Shown here: positions 2,081 through 47,915 of the stretch, one piece after another
Position numbering within the stretch: the stretch's first letter is position 1
Layout of the letters: each line of letters opens with the position of its first letter
Sequence record: MW286156.1
Origin: Escherichia phage vB_EcoS-BECP10
Reading direction: 5' to 3' (one strand)
DNA: 47,915 nucleotides
Translations under genes and position numbers: made by a program
The notes under the pieces: model-generated
What the model saw: only the letters and a program-made list of their open reading frames with translations
What the model was told of the DNA's origin: nothing
Databases searched by the model: none

Positions 2081-2254
2081 ATGATTATTTTGACTCTGAT
2101 GGTTATCGCAGTATTCTTCCCTACGGTTGCCCTGATGGTTGTTGAAGTGATTGATGCTCGCGACACTAAAAAAACTTACGAAGCAATCAATGCTAACCGC
2201 CGCCCTTCCAAGTTCGAAGGTGCTAAATTCTCTACCAACTACAAGGCTCACTAA
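2081..2254 (+). CDS. Small membrane protein (57 aa)
   Basis: Hand-translated; RBS AAAGGCAAAG; N-terminal hydrophobic helix MIILTLMVIAVFFPTVALMVV. Confidence 0.35.
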   Translation: MIILTLMVIAVFFPTVALMVVEVIDARDTKKTYEAINANRRPSKFEGAKFSTNYKAH

Positions 2255-2418
2255 TGTTTGACAACTTTCATGACGCAATTGAGGAGGCTGCATTCAGGGC
2301 ATCACTTGATCGGAAGATTTACGGTTTAGTTCAGAAGGTTGATAAGATTGTGGTGCGTATCGTGCGCAAATCAGTACCAAACAAATTCATGTGGACAACG
2401 AAGAGATTAACAAAATGA
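2254..2418 (+). CDS. Hypothetical small protein (54 aa)
   Basis: Hand-translated; TAATG overlap upstream and ATGA overlap with next gene. Confidence 0.3.
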   Translation: MFDNFHDAIEEAAFRASLDRKIYGLVQKVDKIVVRIVRKSVPNKFMWTTKRLTK

Positions 2419-2768
2419 CTACTACACTGACTAAAAACTTCATTAGCAACAATAATGTACTCTACAAAGCTCGCGTTAAAGATGGTTTAGAGCAGATCAA
2501 GAAAAATGGAAAATGGATTAACCTTGAAGAGCGCGGCAAATACATTAAGACAAAGACACTACTTTGCACCAAGGTTGACCACAGCAATCCACTTAAGAAA
2601 TCATTCACTGAAGGTAAGCGTTATCAGATATCTATGCACGCTGGATTAGGTCGTAATGCTGGCTATATCTACGACAATGAAGGTGACGGCTGGCAGCTCA
2701 CTCGCGATGATGAAGTTGGCTATGATGTAGGCTTTGGGATGTATAAGTTTGAGGCCCAATACAAATGA
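2415..2768 (+). CDS. Early protein, paralog family member 2 (117 aa)
   Basis: Internal start of track ORF 2391..2768 matching the N-terminus of 1246..1599 (MTTTLTKNF vs MATTITKNW). Confidence 0.6.
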   Translation: MTTTLTKNFISNNNVLYKARVKDGLEQIKKNGKWINLEERGKYIKTKTLLCTKVDHSNPLKKSFTEGKRYQISMHAGLGRNAGYIYDNEGDGWQLTRDDEVGYDVGFGMYKFEAQYK

Positions 2769-2959
2769 ATGAGAATGTAAGAATCTACATAACAAGAGAT
2801 GCGATTTATTGCAAGTCTCTACAGTACGGAACTAAGTACAGATACTGCAAAGATAGAGGCCGCTTCTGTGTTATTGATTACATAAACCTTGATGGATTGC
2901 TTGAAACTTTTCTAGATACATTCCCAAGCGATAAGCTTTGGAACGGAGTTCCTTTTTAG
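2765..2959 (+). CDS. Hypothetical small protein (64 aa)
   Basis: ORF track; ATGA overlap with previous gene. Confidence 0.45.
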   Translation: MNENVRIYITRDAIYCKSLQYGTKYRYCKDRGRFCVIDYINLDGLLETFLDTFPSDKLWNGVPF

Positions 2960-2961
2960 TA

Positions 2962-3037
2962 AATAGCACTAATTGCTAAAGCCCTTCGGGGCTTTTCCTG
3001 TATATTCATCTCATCGAAACGAAATGGAGTTACTAAA
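2962..3037 (+). promoter_or_regulatory. Early promoter module 5: IR 2964-2978, hairpin AAGCCCTTCGGGGCTT, TGTATATT, CATCGAAACGAAA
   Basis: AAATAGCACTAATTGCTAAAG, hairpin, TATATT, conserved leader, RBS GGAG. Confidence 0.65.
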
Positions 3038-3259
3038 ATGATTAACTTTAAAGAAGCAGCAACAGAAATTATGGACTTCGAGCGAGAGCTAATATGGATG
3101 GGACATAATATGACCAATCTGGAAATTGCTAACCAGATTTGGCACTCTAAGATGAATCCACAGGATAGATTAGAAGTTATGAACATAGTGGGCGAAGTGA
3201 AAGGTAGTGCATTAATGAAGCTTCGCGCTTGTCATTCTTACATTGCCAAGCAACTTTAA
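3038..3259 (+). CDS. Hypothetical early protein (73 aa)
   Basis: ORF track; downstream of module 5. Confidence 0.45.
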   Translation: MINFKEAATEIMDFERELIWMGHNMTNLEIANQIWHSKMNPQDRLEVMNIVGEVKGSALMKLRACHSYIAKQL

Positions 3260-3272
3260 GGGGGTAGATAAT

Positions 3273-3464
3273 ATGACGCAGGAGCAGGTTGTACAACTAA
3301 TGGTACGCTATAACCAGATATTAGCATTACTTAAGGCTGAGCGTGTAGACCAATCTGACCGCGATGCTGTAAAGGCGTGCCTATCTGAGACTGTTCAACC
3401 AAAACATAACTATGACTGTTATATTTACTTTTACGGTAGGACAATACCGTTTGATTTGGAATAG
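3273..3464 (+). CDS. Hypothetical early protein (63 aa)
   Basis: Internal ATG of track ORF 3243..3464 preceded by RBS AAGGGGG. Confidence 0.4.
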   Translation: MTQEQVVQLMVRYNQILALLKAERVDQSDRDAVKACLSETVQPKHNYDCYIYFYGRTIPFDLE

Positions 3465-3505
3465 CGTTAGTTTGTATTTTCTTTGATTGATATATCAAAC
3501 TAGCA

Positions 3506-3586
3506 AATAGCACTTTTTGCTAAAACAAAATCGCAAGGATGCGGTATTATCTTTACATCGAAACGAAAAAGCGAAAGGTAAAAAAA
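3506..3586 (+). promoter_or_regulatory. Early promoter module 6: IR 3508-3522, hairpin CGCAAGGATGCG, TATTAT, CATCGAAACGAAA
   Basis: AATAGCACTTTTTGCTAAAAC, hairpin, TATTAT, leader, RBS AAAGG. Confidence 0.65.
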
Positions 3587-3838
3587 ATGAATACTTCAAA
3601 TAAAAACTTTATTACTTCATATAAAAAACTCCTTAAAGAACGCCTTGGTAAAAAAGACTTAGGGCATGACAAAATGGGATTTAAAGAAGGAAATCCTCAT
3701 CATGTTCTCGTGACTGGTTCAATATCCGGATCAACTAGCTACATTTACGACGAACATGGGAACGAGCGGCAGCTATACCTTAATGATGACTCTGGAACCT
3801 GCACCATTTGCGGAACATACGCATGGGAGGTTCAATAA
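3587..3838 (+). CDS. Early protein, divergent paralog family member 3 (83 aa)
   Basis: Internal start of track ORF 3539..3838; shares NKNFI...YIYDE.G motifs with the two 117-aa paralogs. Confidence 0.45.
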   Translation: MNTSNKNFITSYKKLLKERLGKKDLGHDKMGFKEGNPHHVLVTGSISGSTSYIYDEHGNERQLYLNDDSGTCTICGTYAWEVQ

Positions 3839-3844
3839 AAATTT

Positions 3845-3919
3845 AATAGCACAAATTGATAATGAATTATAAGCGGTCGTTGATATAATGGCCGCTCAGA
3901 AACAACACGGAGAGAAGTA
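3845..3919 (+). promoter_or_regulatory. Promoter module 7: degenerate IR TAGCAC-N5-TGATA (3847-3861), hairpin, TGATATAAT
   Basis: AATAGCACAAATTGATAATG, hairpin GCGGTCG..., extended -10-like TGATATAAT, RBS GGAGAG. Confidence 0.5.
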
Positions 3920-7614: not shown

Positions 7615-7691
7615 CTTTGTATCCTCTCGTTTGTTTAGATGGGGTAACTATACCCCATCTTTTGATTTTCGTTTTAGCAATTCGTGCTATT
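7615..7691 (-). promoter_or_regulatory. Promoter module 9 (minus): IR 7675-7689, hairpin overlapping TATAGT, leader variant CATCTAAACAAACGAGAGG
   Basis: Minus-strand reading AAATAGCACGAATTGCTAAAAC then GGGGTATAGTTACCCC and a box-2 variant. Confidence 0.55.
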
Positions 7692-7953
7692 TAGACTTTA
7701 TTTGACTCCACTATATAGCACTCAAGGACAATCTTTTTATCATCAACATTCATCGTGCTGTGATTAAGCCAATCAACAACCGTTCTTAATTCCACTCATT
7801 CATGGTAAATCTCTTTTCCAAGTTCACAATACTGTTGAGATACCAATGGAGATGAAAGGCTTGCAACTAAAATCATCTCTGTAATCATTTTGATTCCTAT
7901 ATCTGTAGCTGACGCATCTCAAAAGCCTCGAAGGGCTTTAACAAAAAGTGATA

Positions 7954-10538: not shown

Positions 10539-10614
10539 TTTGTTTCTCTCTCTTCGTTTCGATGAAGTAACTATATCGCATCCTTGCGAAATCTCTTTAG
10601 CAATTCGTGCTATT
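10539..10614 (-). promoter_or_regulatory. Promoter module 12 (minus): IR 10598-10612, hairpin TCGCAAGGATGCGA, TATAGT, TTCATCGAAACGAAGAG
   Basis: Minus-strand CAAATAGCACGAATTGCTAAAG, 22-nt spacer with hairpin, TATAGT, leader. Confidence 0.65.
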
Positions 10615-10986
10615 TGATAGATAATCTGTAATTGCCAACTTAAACATTTCAAACCCATAACAGATTGCCGCGTAACCTCCTGTTTCTGATACCTTTTCCA
10701 GGAACTCCTTTTGCTCCTTTGAAACCTTGCTATCTGATTTTATTGCTCGCTTAAGCTCTATTGCGGCAAAGCCATTTGGTCCAATCAGTAGAATATCTGA
10801 TACACCCTTAATTACTCCCTCCTGCTTGTCCTTCATTGCTGTGCCGATAGACTTGAGACCTTCATTCTTCACGTGAAAAGCAAATATCTCTGGATGGTTG
10901 TGGCGAACCCAAGCTATTGAATTTATTTGGTGAACAACCTCTTTAGCCTTGTCCGTGCTTGTTTTGTCGTGAAAAACCTTAACCAT
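10597..10986 (-). CDS. VRR-NUC domain nuclease (129 aa)
   Basis: PD-(D/E)XK-type motif DILLIGPNG...AAIELK; sits immediately 3' of the helicase gene. Confidence 0.6.
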   Translation of the reverse strand: MVKVFHDKTSTDKAKEVVHQINSIAWVRHNHPEIFAFHVKNEGLKSIGTAMKDKQEGVIKGVSDILLIGPNGFAAIELKRAIKSDSKVSKEQKEFLEKVSETGGYAAICYGFEMFKLAITDYLSNSTNC

Positions 10987-18419: not shown

Positions 18420-18491
18420 ACTTTTCCTCTCGTTGTCGATGAGGTAACTATACCTCACCGATTTAATGTTGTTTTAGCTATTCGTGCTGTT
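18420..18491 (-). promoter_or_regulatory. Promoter module 14 (minus): IR variant 18475-18489, hairpin over TATAGT, leader CCTCATCGACAACGAGAGG
   Basis: Minus-strand CAGCACGAATAGCTAAAAC then GAGGTATAGTTACCTC and leader box. Confidence 0.55.
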
Positions 18492-19442
18492 TTCGTACTT
18501 TGACATATAGTAAGACGGTACTTGCAACTCCATTGAATCCTCAATCATGTTGTATCCAGGCCATTTGTCATACTTCTTGCATTGCTTGTATGTTGCCAAT
18601 GCCTGCATATACTGGCGGCGGCCTAAAGCAATGTGCGCATCTGATAATGTGTAAAGCATAGGCAGGTATGGCGCCTTTTTCTCCTGAGCTAGCAGTTGTA
18701 CAATAACCTTTCGCTTTTCGTTGAACGCACGAACAAACAGGTCGCGCTGTAAAGCCATTTTAAGCAAGTAGCCATAATTGGCAGCAAGCCTACCAAATCC
18801 TTCAGGTGACGCGTCAGAGGTCGTCTTGTAATCTGTGATATAGACAACATCATCAACCACGTCAACATGGTCCAGCCTGACCTTAACTCCGCACTCATTA
18901 ATATCGCCGAAGATTGATAACTCTCGCTGAGCGGTTTTACTGTTCACTATCGCATTGTATGCAGGAATTCCGCACAGCACCTCTCGCATCGCATGTACTG
19001 TGTCAAAGTCTTTAGCTGATACAATCTCGCGACCGTTCGCTTTAACCTCGCTAGAGCGCTGAATATCCCACCATACGTTAAGTGATTCACCGCTCAGCGA
19101 CAGAATCTCCATTAATTCTGGATAATCCTTACCAGATGTTCCAGCAATACCCATCGACTTCAACCGAGTTGCCAAAGCAGTCTTGCTAGTAATCAGATCC
19201 TCAAACTCTTCTTGCGCTGGCTGGCGATAGTAAGTCGCATCGAATACAGAGTTTTCAAGAATAACCGTGTGGGCTAATGTACCGAACTTTAACGCCTTAT
19301 TGCTATCATCATGCTCTGCAAACTTATAAGCAGCGGGGCAGGTTGAGAAGATGTGAGCCAGACCAGAGCCAGACACATGGTCTGACTCCTTGTGGTAGGC
19401 CTCGTTGGTTAACTCGTCGCTAGTGTAAACCTTGAAGCTCAT
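18474..19442 (-). CDS. PD-(D/E)XK family exonuclease (recombination exonuclease, 322 aa)
   Basis: Motif DHVDVVDDVVYITDYKTT consistent with a D...(D/E)xK nuclease core; adjacent to annealing protein and SSB. Confidence 0.55.
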   Translation of the reverse strand: MSFKVYTSDELTNEAYHKESDHVSGSGLAHIFSTCPAAYKFAEHDDSNKALKFGTLAHTVILENSVFDATYYRQPAQEEFEDLITSKTALATRLKSMGIAGTSGKDYPELMEILSLSGESLNVWWDIQRSSEVKANGREIVSAKDFDTVHAMREVLCGIPAYNAIVNSKTAQRELSIFGDINECGVKVRLDHVDVVDDVVYITDYKTTSDASPEGFGRLAANYGYLLKMALQRDLFVRAFNEKRKVIVQLLAQEKKAPYLPMLYTLSDAHIALGRRQYMQALATYKQCKKYDKWPGYNMIEDSMELQVPSYYMSKYENSTNS

Positions 19443-21003: not shown

Positions 21004-21088
21004 ATAGCACGATTTGCTAAAGACTCCAGCAGAAGCCTTTGCTATAGTTACTCCATCGAAACGAAACATACTTACTAAGGAATACAAA
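21004..21088 (+). promoter_or_regulatory. Promoter module 8: IR 21006-21020, TGCTATAGT, CATCGAAACGAAA
   Basis: AAATAGCACGATTTGCTAAAG, about 23-nt spacer, extended -10-like TGCTATAGT, leader, RBS AAGGA. Confidence 0.65.
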
Positions 21089-21334
21089 ATGACTAACTTC
21101 ATCAAATCAGCAATCATCGCAGCAGCAGTAATCATGACGGTAGGTTGTTCTTCTGGTCCGCGCCCTGACGGATGGTGTGCGACTCAGGCGGGTGATGTTT
21201 GCGTAGCTAAGTGGAAAGGTGGTGTTATTGTTGCAGCTGGAGAGGTTGATATTCGTTATGCTGGCATTGAGTCAAAGGTTGGTGGAGGCTACGGCGGCTC
21301 AGTTGCAGATCACGGCTCAAAGGAGTGGAAATAA
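21089..21334 (+). CDS. Small lipoprotein (81 aa), candidate superinfection-exclusion or receptor-blocking protein (Cor/Llp-like role)
   Basis: Signal peptide with lipobox-like VIMTVGC; small size; first gene of an IR-driven operon with a tail-fibre-like gene. Confidence 0.45.
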
Positions 21335-22326: not shown

Positions 22327-25300
22327 TTACCATACTCCAACCACTACCCTACCTCCATTTGGTAAATTAACAGTTATGCCGTTATTGTTTATTACGACAG
22401 TATTGTTGGTTCCGTTAAACGCGAAGTTACCATTGTTAGCGTACAAACTACCGCGAACGGTAGCGTTACTTAACTCAGCAAAACCAGATTTATCAATTGC
22501 CCAACCAGCACTACCAGCAACATAGTTGTTTGATTGAATCCTGTTACCAATCTTCGCGTTAGTAATTGAACCATCCTGAATCACCGCGCTCTGAATGAAC
22601 ACCTGGTTATTCTCCACAACGAAAGGCAGTGACCACTGACCGGATCCAGAACTAATACCGTTGCTGATTGCGAACCTGTTAGCATCAAAAATAAACTGAC
22701 TACGAACATTTCCACCACTACCAGTTAACTCCATGCTCATTCCAGCGCCGTACTCAACTCCATTGTACTTCAGGCCAAGCTTAACGCCGTACTGAACACC
22801 AACCCCTTCAACCGTAGCGTAAGAGTCAAGCTTCTGATTCAAAGCCGCCTCGTTATCACCAAGCCTTGCGCTTAATTGAGTATCAGCTGTAGCCCTGGCT
22901 TCGGTCTCCGTAGCAAGCGCGGTTTCAATTGTCGTAATCTGACCAACAATCTCATCATCAATCTGCGCTTTAAGCTGCGTGAGAGAGTCCACACGGGCCT
23001 GAGTTTCATCAGCAATCAAACTTACAGCCTGACGATATTCAGCCTTCCTTGCGCCATTCTCGCGCTTCATAACGCGAACGTCAGTATCGTTTGCCAGGGC
23101 GTTCTCTATAATTGCCTCAGCCTGATTCTGGATATCCGTGTTTGCATCAATGGCGTTCTGAAGTAGGTACTTGTAACCATCAGAGTTTTCGATATCAACC
23201 TTGATATCACCAATTATTGCACTTACGTCGTCAGATGCCATGCCCCTTACAAAATCAGTCCATGGCGATACGTTACCTATCCTGTCAATAATCCTCGCTC
23301 TGTACCACCTCACGTTACCTGCTGGTAAAGTGGTGTGCCAGTATTCGTACTGAGGATACGGAACCAGTGTAAGCAGCGATGCGCTCTCTGGATTGTATGT
23401 ACCGTCACCATTATCAGGAACCTGCTGAAGCTCAGTGTACGCAGTGTCAGCTGAATCAGTAGGAAAACCCCACTTAACCCTAATCCCGAAAACCTCATCA
23501 TCAGATGCGGTAATTACAGGCAGCGCCGAAGGTTCCCCAATCTTGCCGGTCAGGCTAACTGTCGTTATATCAGACCAGGCAGATACTGATTTCTGGTCAG
23601 TTACGGCACGAACCCTGACGTCGTAGATGCCAGCGTAAATTCCTTCAATATCAACCTCGGTGTTAGCCGTCTCTGGTACGTTAATCCAGTTACCATTGTT
23701 CTTACGCCATTGTACGTTGTATGTTTTCGCATACTGCACCTTGTCGTAACCAATAACCATCGTCTCAACGCTTAAACCCTGAACTACCTTGCTGTAACTA
23801 GTAACGGTGATATTTTCAGGTGGTAAAATCCTGTCAGGGTCAACGATACTTGTTGGCCTGTCGTCAATATTCACACCATAGTCAATCTCGTCATACTTGT
23901 TCGGGTCATACTGCACCGCAGTGATGCTGTACTGGAATGAATCCTCGCCGTCCGTGTTTGCTTTTTGAATTCCTGTCACAACGTATTGCTGCAACGCCAG
24001 ATTCTGCTTGTCGATTGCAAATACCGTATCCGGCTGAGGTGTGAAGCTGAATGCTGTATTCAGTTCAAGCGTCAACTTATCGGCAGATACTGAAGCGATA
24101 GTCCTGTACTCTGGGCTCCCATCTGGCTTGTTGATTAAAATCCTGTCGCCAGGGTCAGCATCAATAGCGAATGGCACGAACACCTGCAAACCTGTAGCTT
24201 CAACAATTCGACCCGAAAGGTTTAATGTGTAGTTGCTTGACCAAGCCTGGTCATTAACGGCAATTACATCACCAATCATCGGAATCATCCCCTCAAGGCC
24301 AGTTGTGAATGTTACCGTTTCACTTCGAAGGTTTGTTTTCAGCAACCAACGACCACGGCGGTTAGCCTCGCTTCGCCTTACGCAGCCAATTGCAGTCAAG
24401 TCTACAGGGTTGTAACCAAATCGGCGTGTTGCTTCTAAGTCGAATACTGGCTCGACGTCCTGCTGGTAGTTGTTCTGCTCGTCATCAAACTGAACGTTGG
24501 CTGTCGTGTAAAGGCTCTTGTCGCTAGAGAATGTCCTGTTAAACAATCCATCAACAACGTTATCATTAGTGAACACATAGCTTGGCTGGCGCGGCCTGTC
24601 TACAACAATCCCGATTTGCTCACCATCATAGAAGGTTAAACCGCGGAAGATAGAACAGATGTCACGAATAAGCTGATACGCTTCCACTTTCTGCTGAATG
24701 ACAACGTTACAAGTATATCGCGGCTCCATTCCACCCTTACCATCAGGAACCATCTGGTCGCAGAATTGCGCTGCTTCATACAGACCCCATTTATCAATCT
24801 CAACACCAAGTTCTCGCTGATCTAAACCGTAACGCTGGCTAACCACCAGGTCATATAAAACCCAGGCCGGGTTGTCAGACCATGCCATTTTAAAGGTTCC
24901 ATTCCATGCTCCGCTATAAGTTCTTGTCTCTGGATTGTAGTTTGTCGGCACACGGATAAGCTTCCACTTTTTCTTAATGGCTATCGTTGGGATGCCATTA
25001 GGGAACAGGTCAGAACTGAACTCCACATAAACAAGTGCCGTAAGAGGGTAGCGGAACTTAGCGTCGATTACTTCCTGATAGGTTGTAATCTGCATTCCGT
25101 TAACTAGAGTGCTACTTGTTGAGTCTGGCGTTAACTTCCTAATACGAACAAGAGCGCTGCTAAACTCGGCTGGTAGGTTAACCCTGATGCTGCGGTCGTA
25201 ACCTGTTGTAGTTTTACCGTTAGCCACGCCTCTGGTATATTCCGTGTACGCTGCGCCATTAACTGATAAATCGATTGCATATTCACATGTTGTTCCATTT

Positions 25301-25752
25301 AAATCTCCATTCTCTTCTTGCTTAACGAGCCGAGGCCAGAACAGTTTAACGCGGATTGCTGATAGCTGACTGTTGTTAACTGCGATGATGTAAGGTGTGT
25401 CGTTGTTAATTTCACGACTAACCTGAATCTCTGATGCCGCGCCATCTAGTCCTGCGATGTAATCTTGGGATTGAGTGCCGGCGCGAAACTCAGCTGTCAC
25501 ACCTTCATAGTTGAATGAGTTATCCTGGTTCTGTACTGGAACGTCAGCAAGGTAAACATCCTTAAGTGAGAAGCTAGAATCAACTTCGCCATCAGCTACA
25601 GCCAGTAGCACCTTAATCTTGTTAAGTGAAATCAGGTTATCTTCTTGCTCTACAGGCGTGTGCGGCTTCTTGCTACCACCCTTGCTTCCATAAATCTTTG
25701 GCAAATCGGCCATATCATATAACCTCGTTGTTTGTTTAACCATTTGTGCCAT
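22327..25752 (-). CDS. Central tail fibre / host specificity protein (lambda J-like, 1141 aa)
   Basis: Size, position after I/K/L/M, and conserved J-family blocks. Confidence 0.8.
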   Translation of the reverse strand: MAQMVKQTTRLYDMADLPKIYGSKGGSKKPHTPVEQEDNLISLNKIKVLLAVADGEVDSSFSLKDVYLADVPVQNQDNSFNYEGVTAEFRAGTQSQDYIAGLDGAASEIQVSREINNDTPYIIAVNNSQLSAIRVKLFWPRLVKQEENGDLNGTTCEYAIDLSVNGAAYTEYTRGVANGKTTTGYDRSIRVNLPAEFSSALVRIRKLTPDSTSSTLVNGMQITTYQEVIDAKFRYPLTALVYVEFSSDLFPNGIPTIAIKKKWKLIRVPTNYNPETRTYSGAWNGTFKMAWSDNPAWVLYDLVVSQRYGLDQRELGVEIDKWGLYEAAQFCDQMVPDGKGGMEPRYTCNVVIQQKVEAYQLIRDICSIFRGLTFYDGEQIGIVVDRPRQPSYVFTNDNVVDGLFNRTFSSDKSLYTTANVQFDDEQNNYQQDVEPVFDLEATRRFGYNPVDLTAIGCVRRSEANRRGRWLLKTNLRSETVTFTTGLEGMIPMIGDVIAVNDQAWSSNYTLNLSGRIVEATGLQVFVPFAIDADPGDRILINKPDGSPEYRTIASVSADKLTLELNTAFSFTPQPDTVFAIDKQNLALQQYVVTGIQKANTDGEDSFQYSITAVQYDPNKYDEIDYGVNIDDRPTSIVDPDRILPPENITVTSYSKVVQGLSVETMVIGYDKVQYAKTYNVQWRKNNGNWINVPETANTEVDIEGIYAGIYDVRVRAVTDQKSVSAWSDITTVSLTGKIGEPSALPVITASDDEVFGIRVKWGFPTDSADTAYTELQQVPDNGDGTYNPESASLLTLVPYPQYEYWHTTLPAGNVRWYRARIIDRIGNVSPWTDFVRGMASDDVSAIIGDIKVDIENSDGYKYLLQNAIDANTDIQNQAEAIIENALANDTDVRVMKRENGARKAEYRQAVSLIADETQARVDSLTQLKAQIDDEIVGQITTIETALATETEARATADTQLSARLGDNEAALNQKLDSYATVEGVGVQYGVKLGLKYNGVEYGAGMSMELTGSGGNVRSQFIFDANRFAISNGISSGSGQWSLPFVVENNQVFIQSAVIQDGSITNAKIGNRIQSNNYVAGSAGWAIDKSGFAELSNATVRGSLYANNGNFAFNGTNNTVVINNNGITVNLPNGGRVVVGVW

Positions 25753-25793: not shown

Positions 25794-26369
25794 TTAACTA
25801 ATGTCCTCGGAATATGAGCCTGCCGAAAATACAGCTCCACCAACAGTCCTGTAACCATAAGGTAAGCAAACGGGGTTGCCTGCCGCAATTGTATTTACTG
25901 CTGAGCCGAATGCGTATGATGCTCGGTTGCTTGTTTGTGATGCCTGGTCATTCAATCCTGTAGCTTGTGGCGCCAATAACTGAGCCACTCCACCAGCAAG
26001 GAGGCCTACAGCCACTGGCAAAAGAACAGGAAAGAAGTATGATGCCACCAAAAGTACACCTCCAAGGATGGTCTGGAATAAGCCGCCAGATTTTCTACCT
26101 TGCGGGATTGGCATAATCCTAATTTCACGTACAGTCTCAAGGTCATTAATCTTGTGCTCGTTAACATTCTTACCGTCAACGAATACAGCAAACCTTGTGT
26201 TCTGGCCCACATGGCTACGCATGAATTCCTTAAATTCAGGGATGTTTACAGAGAGAGCTCGCATTGCCTCTGGAACTGTCTTAACGCACAGTTTATGTAG
26301 CTTTCCAAACTTCCTGCCTAAGCCTAATCCCAGCTTAACATCAATCACGTTCTGGGTCATAACCAGCAT
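25794..26369 (-). CDS. Tail assembly protein (lambda I-like, 191 aa)
   Basis: Position between K and J; C-terminal hydrophobic Gly-rich segment. Confidence 0.55.
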   Translation of the reverse strand: MLVMTQNVIDVKLGLGLGRKFGKLHKLCVKTVPEAMRALSVNIPEFKEFMRSHVGQNTRFAVFVDGKNVNEHKINDLETVREIRIMPIPQGRKSGGLFQTILGGVLLVASYFFPVLLPVAVGLLAGGVAQLLAPQATGLNDQASQTSNRASYAFGSAVNTIAAGNPVCLPYGYRTVGGAVFSAGSYSEDIS

Positions 26370-27087
26370 CCTCCGGTAAATCTTTATGCCTTACGATTCG
26401 TACAGTCCGCTCACGATAGTAATCGCCGTACAAATCAACCTTACTCATCTTACCATATAAATGGTGTAGGATTTTATTGTCACCAATGTATATGGCGGCG
26501 TGGTTGGTCTTCTCGCTCTGAATCTGCATCATAACCATTGAGCCAATTGGAATATCATTGCTTCTGACTAATTCGAACCCTTCTAACTCCCAATTATCAT
26601 CGTAGATATTGTCAGGGTATTCATTGGTCCACCACTGATAATCTACGCGATAATCGTTAAGCTTAACACCGTGTAGCTTGTGAAATTCCATAACCAAACC
26701 CCAGCAGTCGAAGCTGCCAAGACCCCATGGGCGACCAGCAAGCGGCATCTTTTCTGGCTGAATAATCCGTAAGTCCCCTTCAGGTATAGAAACAATAACA
26801 TAAGGCAGCTCGCACTCATTGCAGCTGCAAATATCAGCTGCGCTTGGCCTAGTAGTAGCGCCATCACCAGTATGTGAATGTACAACATAAACAACGCTTT
26901 CATTGTCCGAAATCTCCATTAATTCCATTGGGTCGAGAATGAATGATTGCTCTGGTGTTTTGGATACGTTGGTAATCCTGTGATACTTCTGCGCCATCCC
27001 CTTCTGAGTTACAACCCCGCAAGATTCTTGCGGGTAAACCTCGTTGGCGTGGCGAAATATTTCGATCTTAACTTTAGGCGTTAACAT
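26341..27087 (-). CDS. Tail tip assembly protein (lambda K-like) with JAB/MPN and NlpC/P60 domains
   Basis: JAMM motif HSHTGDGATTRPSAAD plus downstream Cys/His papain-like region. Confidence 0.8.
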   Translation of the reverse strand: MLTPKVKIEIFRHANEVYPQESCGVVTQKGMAQKYHRITNVSKTPEQSFILDPMELMEISDNESVVYVVHSHTGDGATTRPSAADICSCNECELPYVIVSIPEGDLRIIQPEKMPLAGRPWGLGSFDCWGLVMEFHKLHGVKLNDYRVDYQWWTNEYPDNIYDDNWELEGFELVRSNDIPIGSMVMMQIQSEKTNHAAIYIGDNKILHHLYGKMSKVDLYGDYYRERTVRIVRHKDLPEDAGYDPERD

Positions 27088-27096
27088 TACCTCTCC

Positions 27097-27861
27097 TTAG
27101 TTTTGGTTGGCTTTAGCTTGCAGGCTCGCAGCAGCGCAACCACCAAAGTCTAACTGATTATTTTCTCCGAACCTTAGCTTGCACGCACGAACCGTTCCGG
27201 CACAGAAGTCTTGCGATGGGTCAGTCACAGGCGCGTTGTCCTTATCGAAATATCGAGTACCCATGTAGTTACATCCATTACCTGAGCGGTATTGATTACG
27301 CTGCGCCCAATAGCAAACAGACTGAACAAGTCGCGCTGGAATGTAAATACCATCCATATCCATTGGGCTAGTTAGTTCAAATGAGGCTGTATTGTAATCA
27401 ACCTGCTTAGGTCTCTCGATGAAGTAAACTAGCTTACGGTAATCCCCATCAGCAATGGTGCCATCTTCGTTAATATTCTCTCGAAGAGTAATCCATATAG
27501 TTACTTTCGCTTGAACAAGGCCATTATAAGTACGGATAAGCGCAGATATATTCTGGTCTACGTTTGACACAACCAGCGTAACCTTGTTTGCCTTCCCGTC
27601 CGAAGTCATGTTAATACCCTGAATCCCGAAAGGCCTTGCGCCGTACTCTTCGCCACGGAAAGTAATTGTCTTTGCTGGTAGGGGCTGGCCAGTTGATTGC
27701 GCCATCATAATTTCTTCAGGTGTGTAGCTGATGTTCTCCCCATGGAAGCGATAAACTGGTGCGCCAAACTTTCCTCCGTCAACTTCAATAAGCGTAACAA
27801 CCTCACCAGGGAACAAGCTTTGTAATTGATTCTCAAACCTAGTGCTTAATGGCGTAGCCAT
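27097..27861 (-). CDS. Minor tail protein (lambda L-like)
   Basis: C-terminal Cys cluster (CYWA...GCNY...C...C) typical of L-like proteins; synteny. Confidence 0.7.
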   Translation of the reverse strand: MATPLSTRFENQLQSLFPGEVVTLIEVDGGKFGAPVYRFHGENISYTPEEIMMAQSTGQPLPAKTITFRGEEYGARPFGIQGINMTSDGKANKVTLVVSNVDQNISALIRTYNGLVQAKVTIWITLRENINEDGTIADGDYRKLVYFIERPKQVDYNTASFELTSPMDMDGIYIPARLVQSVCYWAQRNQYRSGNGCNYMGTRYFDKDNAPVTDPSQDFCAGTVRACKLRFGENNQLDFGGCAAASLQAKANQN

Positions 27862-27871
27862 AATGTTTCTC

Positions 27872-27897
27872 CAATAAAAAAGACCCCTTAGGGTCTT
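27872..27897 (-). terminator. Intrinsic terminator closing the moron cassette
   Basis: Minus-strand hairpin AAGACCC-TAAG-GGGTCTT followed by TTTTTTATT. Confidence 0.6.
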
Positions 27898-28120
27898 AGT
27901 TTACTTTAATGAATGTCACCAATCCACCACTAAAAGATTTACAGCAGAAAGTCAAAGGAGCAACTCCAACCTCGCTTAACTCATAGGAAAAACCTTCATC
28001 AGAAAGTTCATAATAACCATAATCATCATTGAAGTATGCCACATAAGTTTTACCAACATTTAAATCATAGACACCAACTTCAGCATTTGTGCAAAGCAAA
28101 TTAATTTTCATATCAATCAC
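27896..28120 (-). CDS. Moron-encoded hypothetical protein (74 aa) inserted between tail genes M and L
   Basis: ORF track; own IR promoter module upstream and own terminator downstream; RBS AAGAGGTG. Confidence 0.5.
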   Translation of the reverse strand: MIDMKINLLCTNAEVGVYDLNVGKTYVAYFNDDYGYYELSDEGFSYELSEVGVAPLTFCCKSFSGGLVTFIKVN

Positions 28121-28184
28121 CTCTTTTTTAAGTTTTTTAATTGTAAACCTTCCTTGGTATTTCTGTTTAGCAATTAGTGCTATT
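28121..28184 (-). promoter_or_regulatory. Promoter module 16 (minus) inside the tail operon: IR 28168-28182
   Basis: Minus-strand AAATAGCACTAATTGCTAAAC; no CATCGAAACGA leader. Confidence 0.5.
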
Positions 28185-28534
28185 TACTGCATAGATGTGA
28201 AAACCTCAGTAAATTGCATTGATACGGTCTGAACTTCCTTGGTATTTGGCGTGACGCTAATGCTATCTTGAGCTACAACAAACAGCTTAAGCTCACCCTG
28301 CGGAGTTGTCCATGCGAAAGGTGTAATGATGTGCGCGAAGCAGAATTCAAGAACATCTCTCCAGTCATTGTTGGTGTATGTCATGTTGTACGTTCGCTTG
28401 TTGGCCCTGTATCCTCCAGTACCTCTTTGCTCGTAGCCATTACCAAAGCTGACAACCCTAACGTTATTCGCGTTAGTAAAGTTTGCTGATCCACCTTGAA
28501 TTTGGGTACACCATGTAAAAGTATCTAATGCCAT
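28184..28534 (-). CDS. Minor tail protein (lambda M-like, 116 aa)
   Basis: Size and position between tape measure and L. Confidence 0.55.
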   Translation of the reverse strand: MALDTFTWCTQIQGGSANFTNANNVRVVSFGNGYEQRGTGGYRANKRTYNMTYTNNDWRDVLEFCFAHIITPFAWTTPQGELKLFVVAQDSISVTPNTKEVQTVSMQFTEVFTSMQ

Positions 28535-28565: not shown

Positions 28566-31500
28566 TTAACTATAACCTCGCAAGAACTGGTAAGCCGTTC
28601 CGCCCTGCTGGAAGGACTGAGTAATCTCTTCCGCGATGATAACCCTGATACCAGATTCTAACTGTTTAGCGTCATTACCGCCACCACCGCCAAGACCTGT
28701 CTGAACGGTAACATTCACTCCACCAACATTAACGTTACTTCCACCAACAAGCCCGCCAGTCGCATAGCCAGGACCAGCACCAACCACTCCACCATTTGCG
28801 TATCCGCGCATTAACTTATAAAGGTTATCAACGCCAATCCTTGAGGTTGCCTCCTTCGTAAAGACGAATTCACCTTTATGCACCGTGCCAGCTGGCTCGT
28901 ACTTACCACCGTTTCCAGTATAACCGCCAGAAGCGAAACCAAATGCGCTACCAATAGAGCCAATTGCACCACCACTACCGCCAAAACTGGAGATGGTTGA
29001 TTCAATCGCCTTAATTAAAAGTAGCTGCGTTGCAATGCGTGCAATCTGCTTCAGAATCGATGCGGTAAACTCACGGAAGCTAGCTTCTCCAGTAGTTACC
29101 AGGTTTGTTATCTGGTCAGTCAATCCGTTAAAGGCACTCATGGCTAGCTCGGAACCAATCTGATTAAAGTTTGCCAATTCATCAGCCGTCTCAGCAAACG
29201 CAGATTTAACGCCAGCCAGCCAGTTACCACGTAATGCATCTTCCTGATTGTAGAAATTCTGACGAGCCTGAAGTAAAGCCTGGAAGTCAGTGTCATCTAC
29301 GGAGCCACCTTTAGAAATTTGCTGGGCTTCTAGCGCCGCCAACTCACGCCGCCTTTCCGCTTCGCGCTGAGATAATCCTGCTCCAACACTAATTGATGCC
29401 GCTTCAGCGTTAATCTGCCGAGTCTTCTTGATGTTGTCATCAAGAAGTTTATTGGCCCTTTCTTGCAGCACAATCTGGTCGCCAATCTCAGCCTTCTCGC
29501 GAGCAAGTCCTAAGATTTTATCCTGCTGCAACAGTAATGATCGCTGTTGCTTTGTAATGATTCCGTCTGCAAGCCTTTCATTAAGGATTGCAAACTTAGC
29601 TTCCTCCGCAAAAAGCTGCTTGCGTTCGTTACTGATAACATCACTAATCTGGCGGTGCTCCTGAAGAACCTTAAGCTGAGCCTGCAAAGCTAGAACGCCA
29701 GACTCATAACTTATAGTCAAATCCCTCTCTTCTTTTGCTCCAGATTTTGTCTTTTTACTTCTCTCCTCAATTGCTTTAATCTCATCGGCCAAAGCCTTTC
29801 TTCTTGATTCTGAATCTCTATCAGAAGTTCCAGTTTGACTTTCTGAACCCTCTCCAACACTCAAGTAACCAGTCTCGCCCTTGCGAACCCTTGCATCCCT
29901 ATCAGCGATAGATTTAGCTAGCCTTATGTTTTCCTTTTCTATTGCGTCATTATCCTTCCTTAGTTGTTCGGCTATTCCATTACCAACGCCAGATGCTCCT
30001 GGTATCTTTTGTAAAGCCTCTATCCCGCGTATTACGAAATCATTTATTAGCTTGTCGCCAGTGCCAATTATCAGTCTTATTTGCTCAATAGTCGCAGCTA
30101 TAACGTCAGTAAATAGGTTTAGAGCTCCTATAGTCCTGTCACCTATAGCATCCCATGTGTCTGAAACGAACTTACGGAAATCGCCCCAAGCCAATTCAAG
30201 AGGTGTAAGCGAGCCTTCAATCTGCTTTGTAACTGACTCATTTCTAGCTGCAAATATTTCTAAAGCTGCTGTTACTGCTGCTGTTTGCCCTTCCGTTTCT
30301 TTTAGGTTGTTAACTAGGGTCAGCTGCCCTTCGCTAAGAAAGTTAAATTGCTTATCTAACTCTATCAGCCCCTTAACTGGATCTTTTGCTATCTTATCAA
30401 AGTCAGATATTATTGATTCCGCAGACCTTGAACTAACAGCTGAAAGGTTAGCAACAGACTTAGCTATTAAGTTAATCTGACTAACAGTAAGCCTTCCGTT
30501 TGATACTAGCGACTGGTAAATGTCACCAATAGAACCTTTTGTTGCCCTTGATGTTTCATTTAGCTGATCAGCGTAATCCTTGATAGCGGCAACTGATAAA
30601 GTCGACGACCTTCCAGTTTCAATTATTGCGTTATTAAGTTGCCTAACCTCAATAAATGAGTCGTAAGCGGCTTTACCAAGAACAGCTAATGAAGCAACTA
30701 TCGCGCCACCAAATATAGTTGCAGCACGACCAAACCTTAAGATAGCATCATTACCAAGAGTCCTAACATCAGCAAATGAACTTCTCAGCTCGCCTATTGA
30801 TGATACATAATCTATAACTGCACCTTGCGCAGCTGATAATGTATTTGAAAATCCACCAAATGAATCTGTAATCTGCGGTATTTGCTGGGTAAGCACCATA
30901 AATAAAGGCATACCGTTAGCAATCGAGCTAGTGATATCATTGATCTGTACAGGAAGGAACCTTAAGGCCTGATTGTACTGACCTGCCGATATCCCAGCCG
31001 CCTGAAACGCCCTACTTTGATTGGCTATAGCGTTAGTATTGTTACTTGATGCCTGTGTTATTCTATCTATTATTGGTGCTGCCTGATCGCTAACTCCAAG
31101 CTGTGCCGCCCTTAACTTTAAGAACTCATCCCTACTTAATGTCGCTGCATCAGCCTGTGCTTGAAGCGACCTAATAAATGATTGTGCTTGCCTCTCAGCG
31201 GACTCTTTATTTTTTGCAGCTTCTATAGCCGCCCTACCCTCCTCAGTTAATGCTGACCTAGACCTTATTAACCTATTTGTTTGCGTTTCTAATGCTTCAC
31301 CAAGCCTGTAAAACTCAGCCTCTGGAACAACCCCTGCGGAGAAGGCTCTATCAAGAGAACTTGCTGCATCTTGAAGTTTTCGCAATTTCGAAGCTGTTGG
31401 ATCAATTGCCGACTGAAGCGACTGAAAAGCACTTCTCTGCTCAGAAAGATACCTTGCAGTGTCGCGAGCCTGATTCTTCGCAACCAGCTCAGCATTAACG

Positions 31501-31646
31501 AACTCGCTAACTCCAGCTGCCGCCTGTTCATTGGCACGTTTAAATTCTTGCAGGGACTTTGTGCCCTGGTCAACCTGGCGAACGTCAACGCCAAGTGTGA
31601 TACCTGCAAATTCTGCCATGTAACCTCCATAAAAAAACCTCCACAA
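28566..31646 (-). CDS. Tail tape measure protein (1026 aa)
   Basis: Long Ala/Gln/Leu-rich, helix-prone ORF with Gly-rich C-terminal region; downstream of G/GT chaperones. Confidence 0.8.
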   Translation of the reverse strand: MWRFFYGGYMAEFAGITLGVDVRQVDQGTKSLQEFKRANEQAAAGVSEFVNAELVAKNQARDTARYLSEQRSAFQSLQSAIDPTASKLRKLQDAASSLDRAFSAGVVPEAEFYRLGEALETQTNRLIRSRSALTEEGRAAIEAAKNKESAERQAQSFIRSLQAQADAATLSRDEFLKLRAAQLGVSDQAAPIIDRITQASSNNTNAIANQSRAFQAAGISAGQYNQALRFLPVQINDITSSIANGMPLFMVLTQQIPQITDSFGGFSNTLSAAQGAVIDYVSSIGELRSSFADVRTLGNDAILRFGRAATIFGGAIVASLAVLGKAAYDSFIEVRQLNNAIIETGRSSTLSVAAIKDYADQLNETSRATKGSIGDIYQSLVSNGRLTVSQINLIAKSVANLSAVSSRSAESIISDFDKIAKDPVKGLIELDKQFNFLSEGQLTLVNNLKETEGQTAAVTAALEIFAARNESVTKQIEGSLTPLELAWGDFRKFVSDTWDAIGDRTIGALNLFTDVIAATIEQIRLIIGTGDKLINDFVIRGIEALQKIPGASGVGNGIAEQLRKDNDAIEKENIRLAKSIADRDARVRKGETGYLSVGEGSESQTGTSDRDSESRRKALADEIKAIEERSKKTKSGAKEERDLTISYESGVLALQAQLKVLQEHRQISDVISNERKQLFAEEAKFAILNERLADGIITKQQRSLLLQQDKILGLAREKAEIGDQIVLQERANKLLDDNIKKTRQINAEAASISVGAGLSQREAERRRELAALEAQQISKGGSVDDTDFQALLQARQNFYNQEDALRGNWLAGVKSAFAETADELANFNQIGSELAMSAFNGLTDQITNLVTTGEASFREFTASILKQIARIATQLLLIKAIESTISSFGGSGGAIGSIGSAFGFASGGYTGNGGKYEPAGTVHKGEFVFTKEATSRIGVDNLYKLMRGYANGGVVGAGPGYATGGLVGGSNVNVGGVNVTVQTGLGGGGGNDAKQLESGIRVIIAEEITQSFQQGGTAYQFLRGYS

Positions 31647-34984: not shown

Positions 34985-35929
34985 TTAGAAGGTGATACCT
35001 TTCATTACTGCAACGGTCAGAGGTCGGTAGATAACCAGGCCAGTAGACTTGGAGGTCACAGGAAACTTGAAGTGCAAATCCTTCGGTTGAGCTGGAAGGA
35101 CGTGAGTAGCTTCTGGAATCTCAATGCTCATGTTCAATGGGTCGTACTCATAAGCAATTGCAGCCTTGCCGTTTGCGCCATCGTAGTTGTCAAGGAGTTG
35201 CAGGAACTCCACCTGTACGCCATTGTTGTTACGGGCAAAGAACTCAAAGTAGCTAATACCAGTATTCGGGACCAGAGTTTGCATTACTCGACGAGCGGAT
35301 GCCGGAAGAAGCAGCCTGTTAGCTCGATGGATGCCTTGGGTTGCTGTTTCGATAATATCCAGCAGGCTATTAACGTCAGCGTAAGCAGTCTGTGCTGTAG
35401 TCCATGCGCCGCTTGGAACTACCTGGTTTACGTTGTCGTAATCGAATACAGACTTAATGCCGTGAGGTGCGGAGCCTTTCCAAACTAGCTTATCAAGCAG
35501 GTTGTCATGAGCTTCGAATGCAAGAGCCTGTTTGCGAGAAGATAGTGATTGACCAGTAGCCGCGCCAGCCGCAATCTCATCGATGGAAACCAGGAATGCA
35601 TTACCAAAACGGAACACCTTACCTTGCTTCTCTTGCATCAGTGCATCAACCGTCGGCAAATCATCTGAATAATCAGCTACAATCTGAGCTAAGCCAACAC
35701 CATCCATTTCGCCGTATTCGAAGTATTTAGCGTAAGCGCCAATTTCGTTAGTGACCGGGAACAGGTTAACTACAGACGTTTCAGCATATTCGCGATCGTA
35801 GTTACGGTTAAGCGTCTGAGTCAGCTGTTTGATGGTCCAAATGCCAGCTGCATCAGCTTTTTCAACACCCATGTTACGCAGGTGTTCGGTGATTTTGTTC
35901 TGCTCGAAAGCATCTAGCTTAATAGTCAT
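34985..35929 (-). CDS. Putative major capsid protein (314 aa)
   Basis: Size, position in head module, strong terminator immediately downstream. Confidence 0.5.
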   Translation of the reverse strand: MTIKLDAFEQNKITEHLRNMGVEKADAAGIWTIKQLTQTLNRNYDREYAETSVVNLFPVTNEIGAYAKYFEYGEMDGVGLAQIVADYSDDLPTVDALMQEKQGKVFRFGNAFLVSIDEIAAGAATGQSLSSRKQALAFEAHDNLLDKLVWKGSAPHGIKSVFDYDNVNQVVPSGAWTTAQTAYADVNSLLDIIETATQGIHRANRLLLPASARRVMQTLVPNTGISYFEFFARNNNGVQVEFLQLLDNYDGANGKAAIAYEYDPLNMSIEIPEATHVLPAQPKDLHFKFPVTSKSTGLVIYRPLTVAVMKGITF

Positions 35930-47816: not shown

Positions 47817-47915
47817 ACGAATAGCACTTTTTGCTAAAGACAAATGGGGATGGCAAGGCTATAGTAAACTCATCAACAACGAGGAGATAGATATGAAGGT
47901 AAAAATAACAGCACT
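47817..47915. repeat. Second copy of the terminal direct repeat (duplicates IR module 1 and the first codons of the 77..271 gene)
   Basis: Identical to 1-99. Confidence 0.9.

Follow-up and report, generated by a model that had tools for sequence, protein, structure and literature searches.

A probable moron-like cassette at the M-L tail-gene junction of Escherichia phage vB_EcoS-BECP10, with a Gp54-like fold predicted for its 71-aa product

The morons of lambdoid phages, associated with the HK97 and HK022 comparisons of Hendrix and colleagues, are reportedly extra genes that sit between late genes and bring along a promoter-like element of their own. In phage TLS, a 21-nt direct repeat (aaATAGCACnnnTTGnTAAAA) occurs ~76 nt before start codons and has been noted in T1, Rtp and Rogue1 as well, and the TLS authors remained undecided among a promoter enhancer, a stoperator and an UP-like element (PMC11447400). 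A small gene product of another T1-like phage, Gp54 of Bas11 (66 aa, of unknown function and non-essential in the laboratory), binds to CapRel SJ46, a toxin-antitoxin sensor, and activates it, and, as its authors suggest, it may normally inhibit another defence system (PMC11578894).

The locus considered here belongs to BECP10 (MW286156.1), a Rogunavirus of the Drexlerviridae; the window analyzed is the whole stretch of 47,915 nucleotides. Over the locus, BECP10 is 99.4% identical to Rogue1, also a Rogunavirus. A preliminary description of this DNA had placed a self-contained moron between tail genes M and L, with an inverted-repeat promoter, a 74-aa gene and a terminator of its own. The ORF is flanked by lambda-like tape measure, M, L, K and I genes, with Pfam matches for M and L. 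The analysis favors, as the probable explanation, a moron-like cassette consisting of one Drexlerviridae repeat/promoter module and a 71-aa gene (ORF71), situated after the M stop and upstream of a pre-existing M|L terminator, with a soluble product of predicted Gp54 fold. Taken on its own, the cassette architecture is very likely. The features of the locus are as follows.

28566-31646, minus strand: tape measure gene, in lambda-like tail order
28184-28534, minus strand: minor tail protein M gene (Pfam PF05939, E 2.4e-18; from the ORF list)
28164-28185, minus strand: copy of the T1-family 21-nt repeat (AAATAGCACTAATTGCTAAACA), matching the published TLS consensus
27900-28182, minus strand: insert of 283 bp not present in relatives with an empty site (aligned to JK06 and AHP42; M-to-L gap about 39-40 nt in empty sites)
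28140-28145, minus strand: -10-like hexamer TACAAT, 38 nt past the A of ATAGCAC
28118-28123, minus strand: Shine-Dalgarno GAGGTG, 6 nt before the ATG, read from the sequence
27896-28111, minus strand: ORF71, accessory gene of 71 aa, stop included
27872-27897, minus strand: intrinsic terminator of the M|L junction (stem-loop 27880-27897, T-run 27872-27879)
27097-27861, minus strand: minor tail protein L gene (Pfam PF05100, E 1e-45), the first gene past the terminator
26341-27087, minus strand: gene K (JAB plus NlpC/P60)
25794-26369, minus strand: gene I
22327-25752, minus strand: gene J

The insert is polymorphic among relatives. It is carried by BECP10, Rogue1, UDF157lw, C119, phiKP26 and two metagenome contigs, while JK06, AHP42, AKS96, phiEB49, e4/1c, Opt-719 and Sd1 have an insert-free M-L junction. 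The M-to-L gap spans 322 nt in BECP10; in the seven genomes sampled without the insert (JK06, e4/1c, Sd1, phiEB49 and two viral contigs, with AHP42 and AKS96 similar), it spans 30-46 nt. This comparison upholds the accessory insert proposed in the preliminary description, which had named conservation as an integral tail gene in all relatives, with late-only expression, as the finding that would count against it; ORF71 is absent from JK06, AHP42, AKS96 and others. The base composition of the insert is foreign, with a GC content of 31.8% compared to 43.7% for the genome (bottom 0.4% among 283-nt windows). The repeat element shares its two leading A's with the TAA stop of M (28184-28186), and a 6-bp direct repeat, AGTAAA, occurs at both edges of the insert, on the left as the end of gene M (28183-28188) and on the right within the last codons of ORF71 (27900-27905), such that the junctions are ambiguous by 6 bp.

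The same position has been occupied more than once. AHS24, AHP24 and Sf12, the latter from a different genus, have an unrelated 64-aa ORF at exactly this point, preceded by the same repeat module with ATAGCAC immediately 3' of the M stop, which identifies the M|L junction as a reused slot. The L-K junction is a second variable slot: AHP42 has an HNH endonuclease there (locus 434-922), and Sf12 an HNH endonuclease together with a putative transcription factor (locus 2585-3062). Separately, the M|L terminator is a mosaic breakpoint between BECP10 and UDF157lw (27097-28534), with synonymous divergence of 0.028 in M, 0.023 in ORF71 and 0.43 in L.

The terminator consists of a 7-bp stem and a 4-nt loop followed by six T residues (AAGACCC-TAAG-GGGTCTT plus T6; dG -10.6 kcal/mol), and 2 nt of the stem are shared with the stop codon of ORF71. 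Its position had been given correctly before, but its assignment to the cassette does not hold, as the same hairpin directly follows the M stop in the insert-free JK06 and AHP42. The hairpin is annotated as a terminator in the AHP42, AKS96 and AHS24 records, and a terminator also occurs at M|L in sampled Drexlerviridae with an M protein only 42–46% identical. Across these junctions, the stems differ in sequence yet retain self-complementarity (AAGACCC, GGGCCC, AAGCCCC, AAGCGCCC, AAGCCGCC, AGCCCGCC). Because the hairpin is found directly 3' of M in insert-free relatives, the terminator is part of the backbone rather than the cassette's own. Judged from the sequence, the cassette is a putative promoter plus a gene dropped upstream of a resident terminator; the moron-like designation is retained for its insert polymorphism, repeat copy and foreign GC content, but not for an imported terminator. 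A resident M|L terminator fits the literature, in which the T1 late region is described as a set of terminator-bounded modules (PMC11447400). In more distant Drexlerviridae (L019-L033), a TATAAT-like promoter is present between the M terminator and L, which suggests that L-K-I-J may form a separate transcription unit in those phages. In the Rogunaviruses, there is no room for such a promoter between the M terminator and L.

It should be noted that the coordinates first given for the ORF (27896-28120) are accurate as a reading frame, but the 74-aa length is not retained. This reading begins at a GTG inside the Shine-Dalgarno GAGGTG, and that start was rejected in favor of the ATG at 28111, which lies 6 nt past this good Shine-Dalgarno and is used by GenBank and all homologues; an ORF of 71 aa is the more likely. 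As previously described, the protein is acidic (pI 4.2) and rich in Tyr and Phe (12 of 71 residues), and no Pfam match was obtained at E <= 0.1. The Cys-Cys pair, to which attention had also been drawn, is Tyr-Cys in the orthologues and is not conserved. Searches of PADLOC, PDB sequences and Rfam returned nothing for ORF71 or the region, the best PDB match being no better than E 0.2 and to an unrelated protein, and the match to PHROG 29402 is to a group of unknown function. The published BECP10 and UDF157lw papers do not discuss ORF71. In GenBank, the gene is labeled ‘tailspike sialidase’ in C119, phiKP26, UDF157lw and BECP10. The label was rejected for a protein of 71 aa that has no Pfam, PDB-sequence or fold support for it, and no sialidase was returned by the fold searches; it appears to be a propagated annotation error.

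The ORF71 family is small, with four proteins among 5.8 billion clusters and two further 71-aa homologues (44–50% identity) recovered by an HMM search of 1.8 billion representatives. The same search returned three giant repeat proteins (tandem Hcp, Listeria-Bacteroides repeats and SprB repeats), which were discarded as summed chance matches of beta-strands. The remote homologues P0005 and P0006 have a weak, sub-threshold match to DUF7244. P0005, 50% identical to ORF71, is encoded ahead of the small terminase gene on an Rtp/SU57-like contig, in the order terminator, repeat module with TATAAT, ORF, terminator, small terminase gene. That the module again precedes the gene where it occurs elsewhere in a genome indicates that gene and module travel together.

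The size of the family would also be expected of selfish or decaying cargo, a promoter-gene unit acquired by illegitimate recombination at the repeat and the terminator that provides no current benefit to the phage. The AGTAAA microhomology at both junctions fits such an origin. Additionally, a T-run in the Rogue1 copy is longer by one T, which shifts the frame and leaves 43 aa (locus ~1882–2013), and the closest pair, BECP10 and UDF157lw, differ by six non-synonymous changes to one synonymous, a ratio that fits relaxed or diversifying selection in a comparison with too few changes to interpret. Conversely, the Rogue1 frameshift may be either an error of sequencing through a homopolymer or the mark of a genuine pseudogene, the length of 71-72 aa is retained down to 44–50% identity and the fold is predicted confidently. 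In deeper comparisons with L006 and L007, dN/dS is 0.2-0.3 and ORF71 is under purifying selection. Cargo of no use to the phage is improbable in light of these observations.

The repeat module provides the candidate promoter of the moron-like cassette. The M-L copy (AAATAGCACTAATTGCTAAAC) has a single mismatch to the TLS consensus, at the last position, lies 72 nt ahead of the ATG and contains the inverted repeat TAGCA-CTAAT-TGCTA, which is exact at 28168-28182 as reported in the preliminary description. Inverted-repeat 15-mers with three or fewer mismatches number 26 in the window versus 2.2 expected, a count reached by none of 100 shuffles. About 19 good copies of ATAGCAC-N4-TGCTAAA occur in the window, all co-directional with the following gene. 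Of 19 copies, 18 have their best -10-like hexamer at +37 to +39, counted from the A of ATAGCAC (position 0), and 13, the M-L copy among them, have it at +38; the next start codon is located at +66 to +85 in the other copies and at +72 in the M-L copy. The genes behind the other good copies, identified by mapping onto the Rogue1 annotation, are two helicases, Erf, an anti-repressor-like gene, a Cor-like lipoprotein (PF24052) and small early genes. All are non-structural, in keeping with the early-type element originally claimed, and no other good module copy was found within the terminase-to-J block of the window.

In several respects the M-L copy is atypical. It does not have the CATCGAAACGA box that comes after the -10 in most copies, the -10 hexamer is TACAAT and not TATAGT and there is no good -35, as the distance between TTGCTA and the -10, 22 nt, is too great for that role. 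A consensus promoter scan also marks TAAACA-N18-TACAAT at this copy. A generic sigma-70 scan detected 14 promoter-like sites versus 13 expected, which is not above chance, and the promoter argument is one of repeat-family geometry, not of the generic scan. Transcription would start near 28132-28134, and if the start is ~7 nt after the -10, the center of the palindrome would fall near -42, a placement that resembles the geometry of class II activators.

An experimental counterpart to this arrangement is available from Bas11. There, genes 55 and 54 are separated by 75 nt composed entirely of the module, with the repeat beginning on the gene 55 stop and TATCAT at +38. A pBR322 construct with the native promoter gave expression of Gp54-FLAG in uninfected E. 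coli (Zhang et al., Nature 2024, PMC11578894), which indicates that host RNA polymerase suffices for the gene 54 module, and Bas11 escape mutations just upstream of the Gp54-encoding sequence reduce the level of Gp54 (PMC11578894). By extension from sequence and position, early promoter activity of the M-L copy is favored with moderate confidence.

Several observations on the repeat family fall outside the M|L junction. In many copies, a hairpin is located between the repeat and the -10, or across the -10 (840-900, 2963-3024, 10554-10616, 7631-7693 and 18431-18493), and the copy at 2963 has a full-terminator-like hairpin (GCCCTTCGGGGCTTTT) within the promoter spacer. A partial repeat match with two mismatches (ACAGCACAGACTGCTTA) is present in the structural block at 35382-35398 on the minus strand, followed by TATTAT and CGAAAC, and with its spacing off (+41) it is probably a chance match. 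On the plus strand at 21004-21334, the gene for the 81-aa Cor-like lipoprotein (PF24052, E 8e-38) follows a repeat module; this gene (~21089) is likely a superinfection-exclusion gene using the same expression unit.

The missing -35, together with the several roles considered for the repeat in the literature (PMC11447400), leaves a place for an explanation in which ORF71 is an optional gene of the tail operon, such as an assembly helper or a minor virion protein, expressed only late, by read-through from M, and the repeat is a stoperator, enhancer or UP-like site. ORF71 is on the strand of the tail operon, the interval between M and ORF71 is without a terminator and the close orthologues are all found in this one slot. 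The remote homologue P0005, however, adjoins the small terminase gene and not tail genes, and the absence of ORF71 from sibling phages shows that it is not required to build a tail. The fixed +38 spacing between repeat and hexamer is difficult to reconcile with a pure binding site, and the upstream region of Bas11 gene 54 drives expression without the phage (PMC11578894). Further, the seven structural proteins identified in virions of AHP24, AHS24, AHP42 and AKS96 do not include a small protein of the M-L slot, in a sample that has no ORF71 carrier. A tail-operon gene is an unlikely explanation overall, and by its distribution ORF71 is considered dispensable for virion assembly.

Under the favored moron-like cassette, host RNA polymerase would initiate ~7 nt past TACAAT, near 28133, and produce an mRNA of ~260 nt with a 5' UTR of ~22 nt that would end at the resident terminator. 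ORF71 would be made early in this way, independent of the tail operon. As there is no terminator between M and ORF71, M transcripts would read in unhindered and ORF71 would also be made late. The product would most likely bind a protein of the host or of a defence system, and an immune system could in turn sense it, as happens with Gp54.

The structural predictions provide the lead as to what such a product may be. Structure prediction, one of the checks proposed in the preliminary description, returned a six-stranded beta-barrel with a Gp54-like fold. In models built from alignments of only 3-4 sequences, AlphaFold2 reached a best pLDDT of 93 for ORF71 (three-sequence alignment; five models ranging from 93 to 34) and a pLDDT of 91–93 in all five models of P0005 (four-sequence alignment), the latter with six strands and a long beta1-beta2 loop. 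ORF71 is predicted to be a soluble, cytoplasmic, acidic six-stranded beta-barrel, and the predicted fold matches that of Bas11 Gp54 (PDB 9AXB), a small barrel of six beta-strands in which the beta1-beta2 loop stands out. At the sequence level, BLASTP of ORF71 against Gp54 returned nothing, hhalign of the two family alignments gave a probability of 0.1% and ORF71 did not match Pfam PF25180 (‘Phage antiviral trigger protein Gp54’), nor did tblastn find a Gp54 homologue elsewhere in the window or an ORF71 homologue in Bas11. By sequence, ORF71 is not a member of PF25180, and as modeled it would have only the fold in common with Gp54. Gp54 homologues three residues apart fail to trigger CapRel (PMC11578894), and the Gp54 residues W43 and W53 contact CapRel while ORF71 has no tryptophan at all. 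With near-identical homologues inactive and the Trp contacts missing, no specific CapRel prediction can be made for ORF71.

By analogy to Gp54, a defence- or host-interaction role for ORF71 is a plausible but tentative assignment, and binding to a host or defence protein is the most likely means by which it would act. Morons in the late regions of siphophages often encode exclusion functions, and the N-terminus of ORF71, MKINLLC, is superficially lipobox-like, such that a superinfection-exclusion or receptor-blocking protein akin to Cor or Llp of T1- and T5-like phages may be considered. The functions named in the preliminary description for such cassettes (superinfection exclusion, anti-defence and host modification) are all speculative for ORF71. 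It lacks a signal peptide, lipobox or membrane helix, and exclusion is consequently the least likely of the proposed roles. Cys7 is preceded by only six residues with no hydrophobic h-region, a membrane helix is not expected at a maximum Kyte-Doolittle 19-residue mean of 1.39 and the phage already has the Cor-like lipoprotein (PF24052) elsewhere, also behind a module. An exclusion protein is, on these grounds, very improbable.

A broader proposal would unite ORF71 and Gp54 in one fast-evolving superfamily of small beta-barrels of T1-like phages, diverged past recognition in sequence through an arms race with immune sensors, in which the barrel proteins would inhibit immune sensors, trigger them or both. 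The ATAGCAC repeat would then serve as both promoter and recombination joint, carrying promoter-gene units from one genome site to another, and the conserved M|L terminator as a docking slot for at least two unrelated cassettes. The proposal is speculative and, as a whole, doubtful.

The ORF71 cassette is genuine, though rather ordinary as moron-like genes go, and the predicted fold adds a new and useful lead on structure. Its description corrects the misannotation propagated as ‘tailspike sialidase’, points to the T1-like M|L terminator as a reusable slot for accessory cassettes and links an orphan 71-aa protein, by predicted fold, to the sole characterized non-capsid trigger of CapRel. ORF71 and other proteins with the Gp54 fold become candidates as triggers or inhibitors of defence systems, and the ATAGCAC module becomes a tractable candidate for what drives early genes in the T1-like phages, where promoters are poorly defined. 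BECP10-type phages are in development as biocontrol agents against O157:H7, and knowledge of their accessory genes is of some practical use. Elsewhere in the window, the first 99 nt (1-99) recur exactly as a direct repeat at the other end (47817-47915). This repeat includes a module copy and the first part of a 64-aa gene, and most likely arose as an overlap when a permuted genome was assembled as a circle. The early region contains a diverged 300-nt duplication (1245-1544 versus 2414-2713; 69% identity), and positions 2095-3918 have no counterpart in Rogue1.

Compared with known systems, ORF71 is set apart from the Cor/Llp-type exclusion lipoproteins, which have a signal peptide with a lipobox or a membrane anchor where ORF71 has neither. 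The likeness to the lambdoid morons is extensive, comprising an extra gene between late genes that are adjacent in relatives, a promoter-like element, a downstream terminator and an atypical base composition. However, BECP10 is virulent and would have no expression from a prophage, the promoter candidate is a phage-family repeat and not a generic sigma-70 promoter and the terminator originates from the backbone, not the insert. Within the 21-nt repeat family of TLS, T1, Rtp and Rogue1, the M-L copy conforms in its consensus, intergenic position, co-direction and distance to the start codon, and differs as the sole copy of the window inside the structural block and in its missing CATCGAAACGA box. 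Gp54 of Bas11 and ORF71 are both small (66 versus 71 aa), non-essential or accessory and encoded by Drexlerviridae phages straight behind the same ATAGCAC...TAAA module with its -10 at +38, though gene 54 is part of the early region and ORF71 is inside the tail operon. The AHS24 gp21/AHP24/Sf12 gp45 cassette (PHROG 24631) has kept the canonical TATTAT and CATCGA box in its module, unlike the M-L copy of BECP10, and encodes a 64-aa protein unrelated in sequence to ORF71 but of similar size, and it shares with the ORF71 cassette the insertion point at the end of the M stop, the repeat module and the resident terminator.
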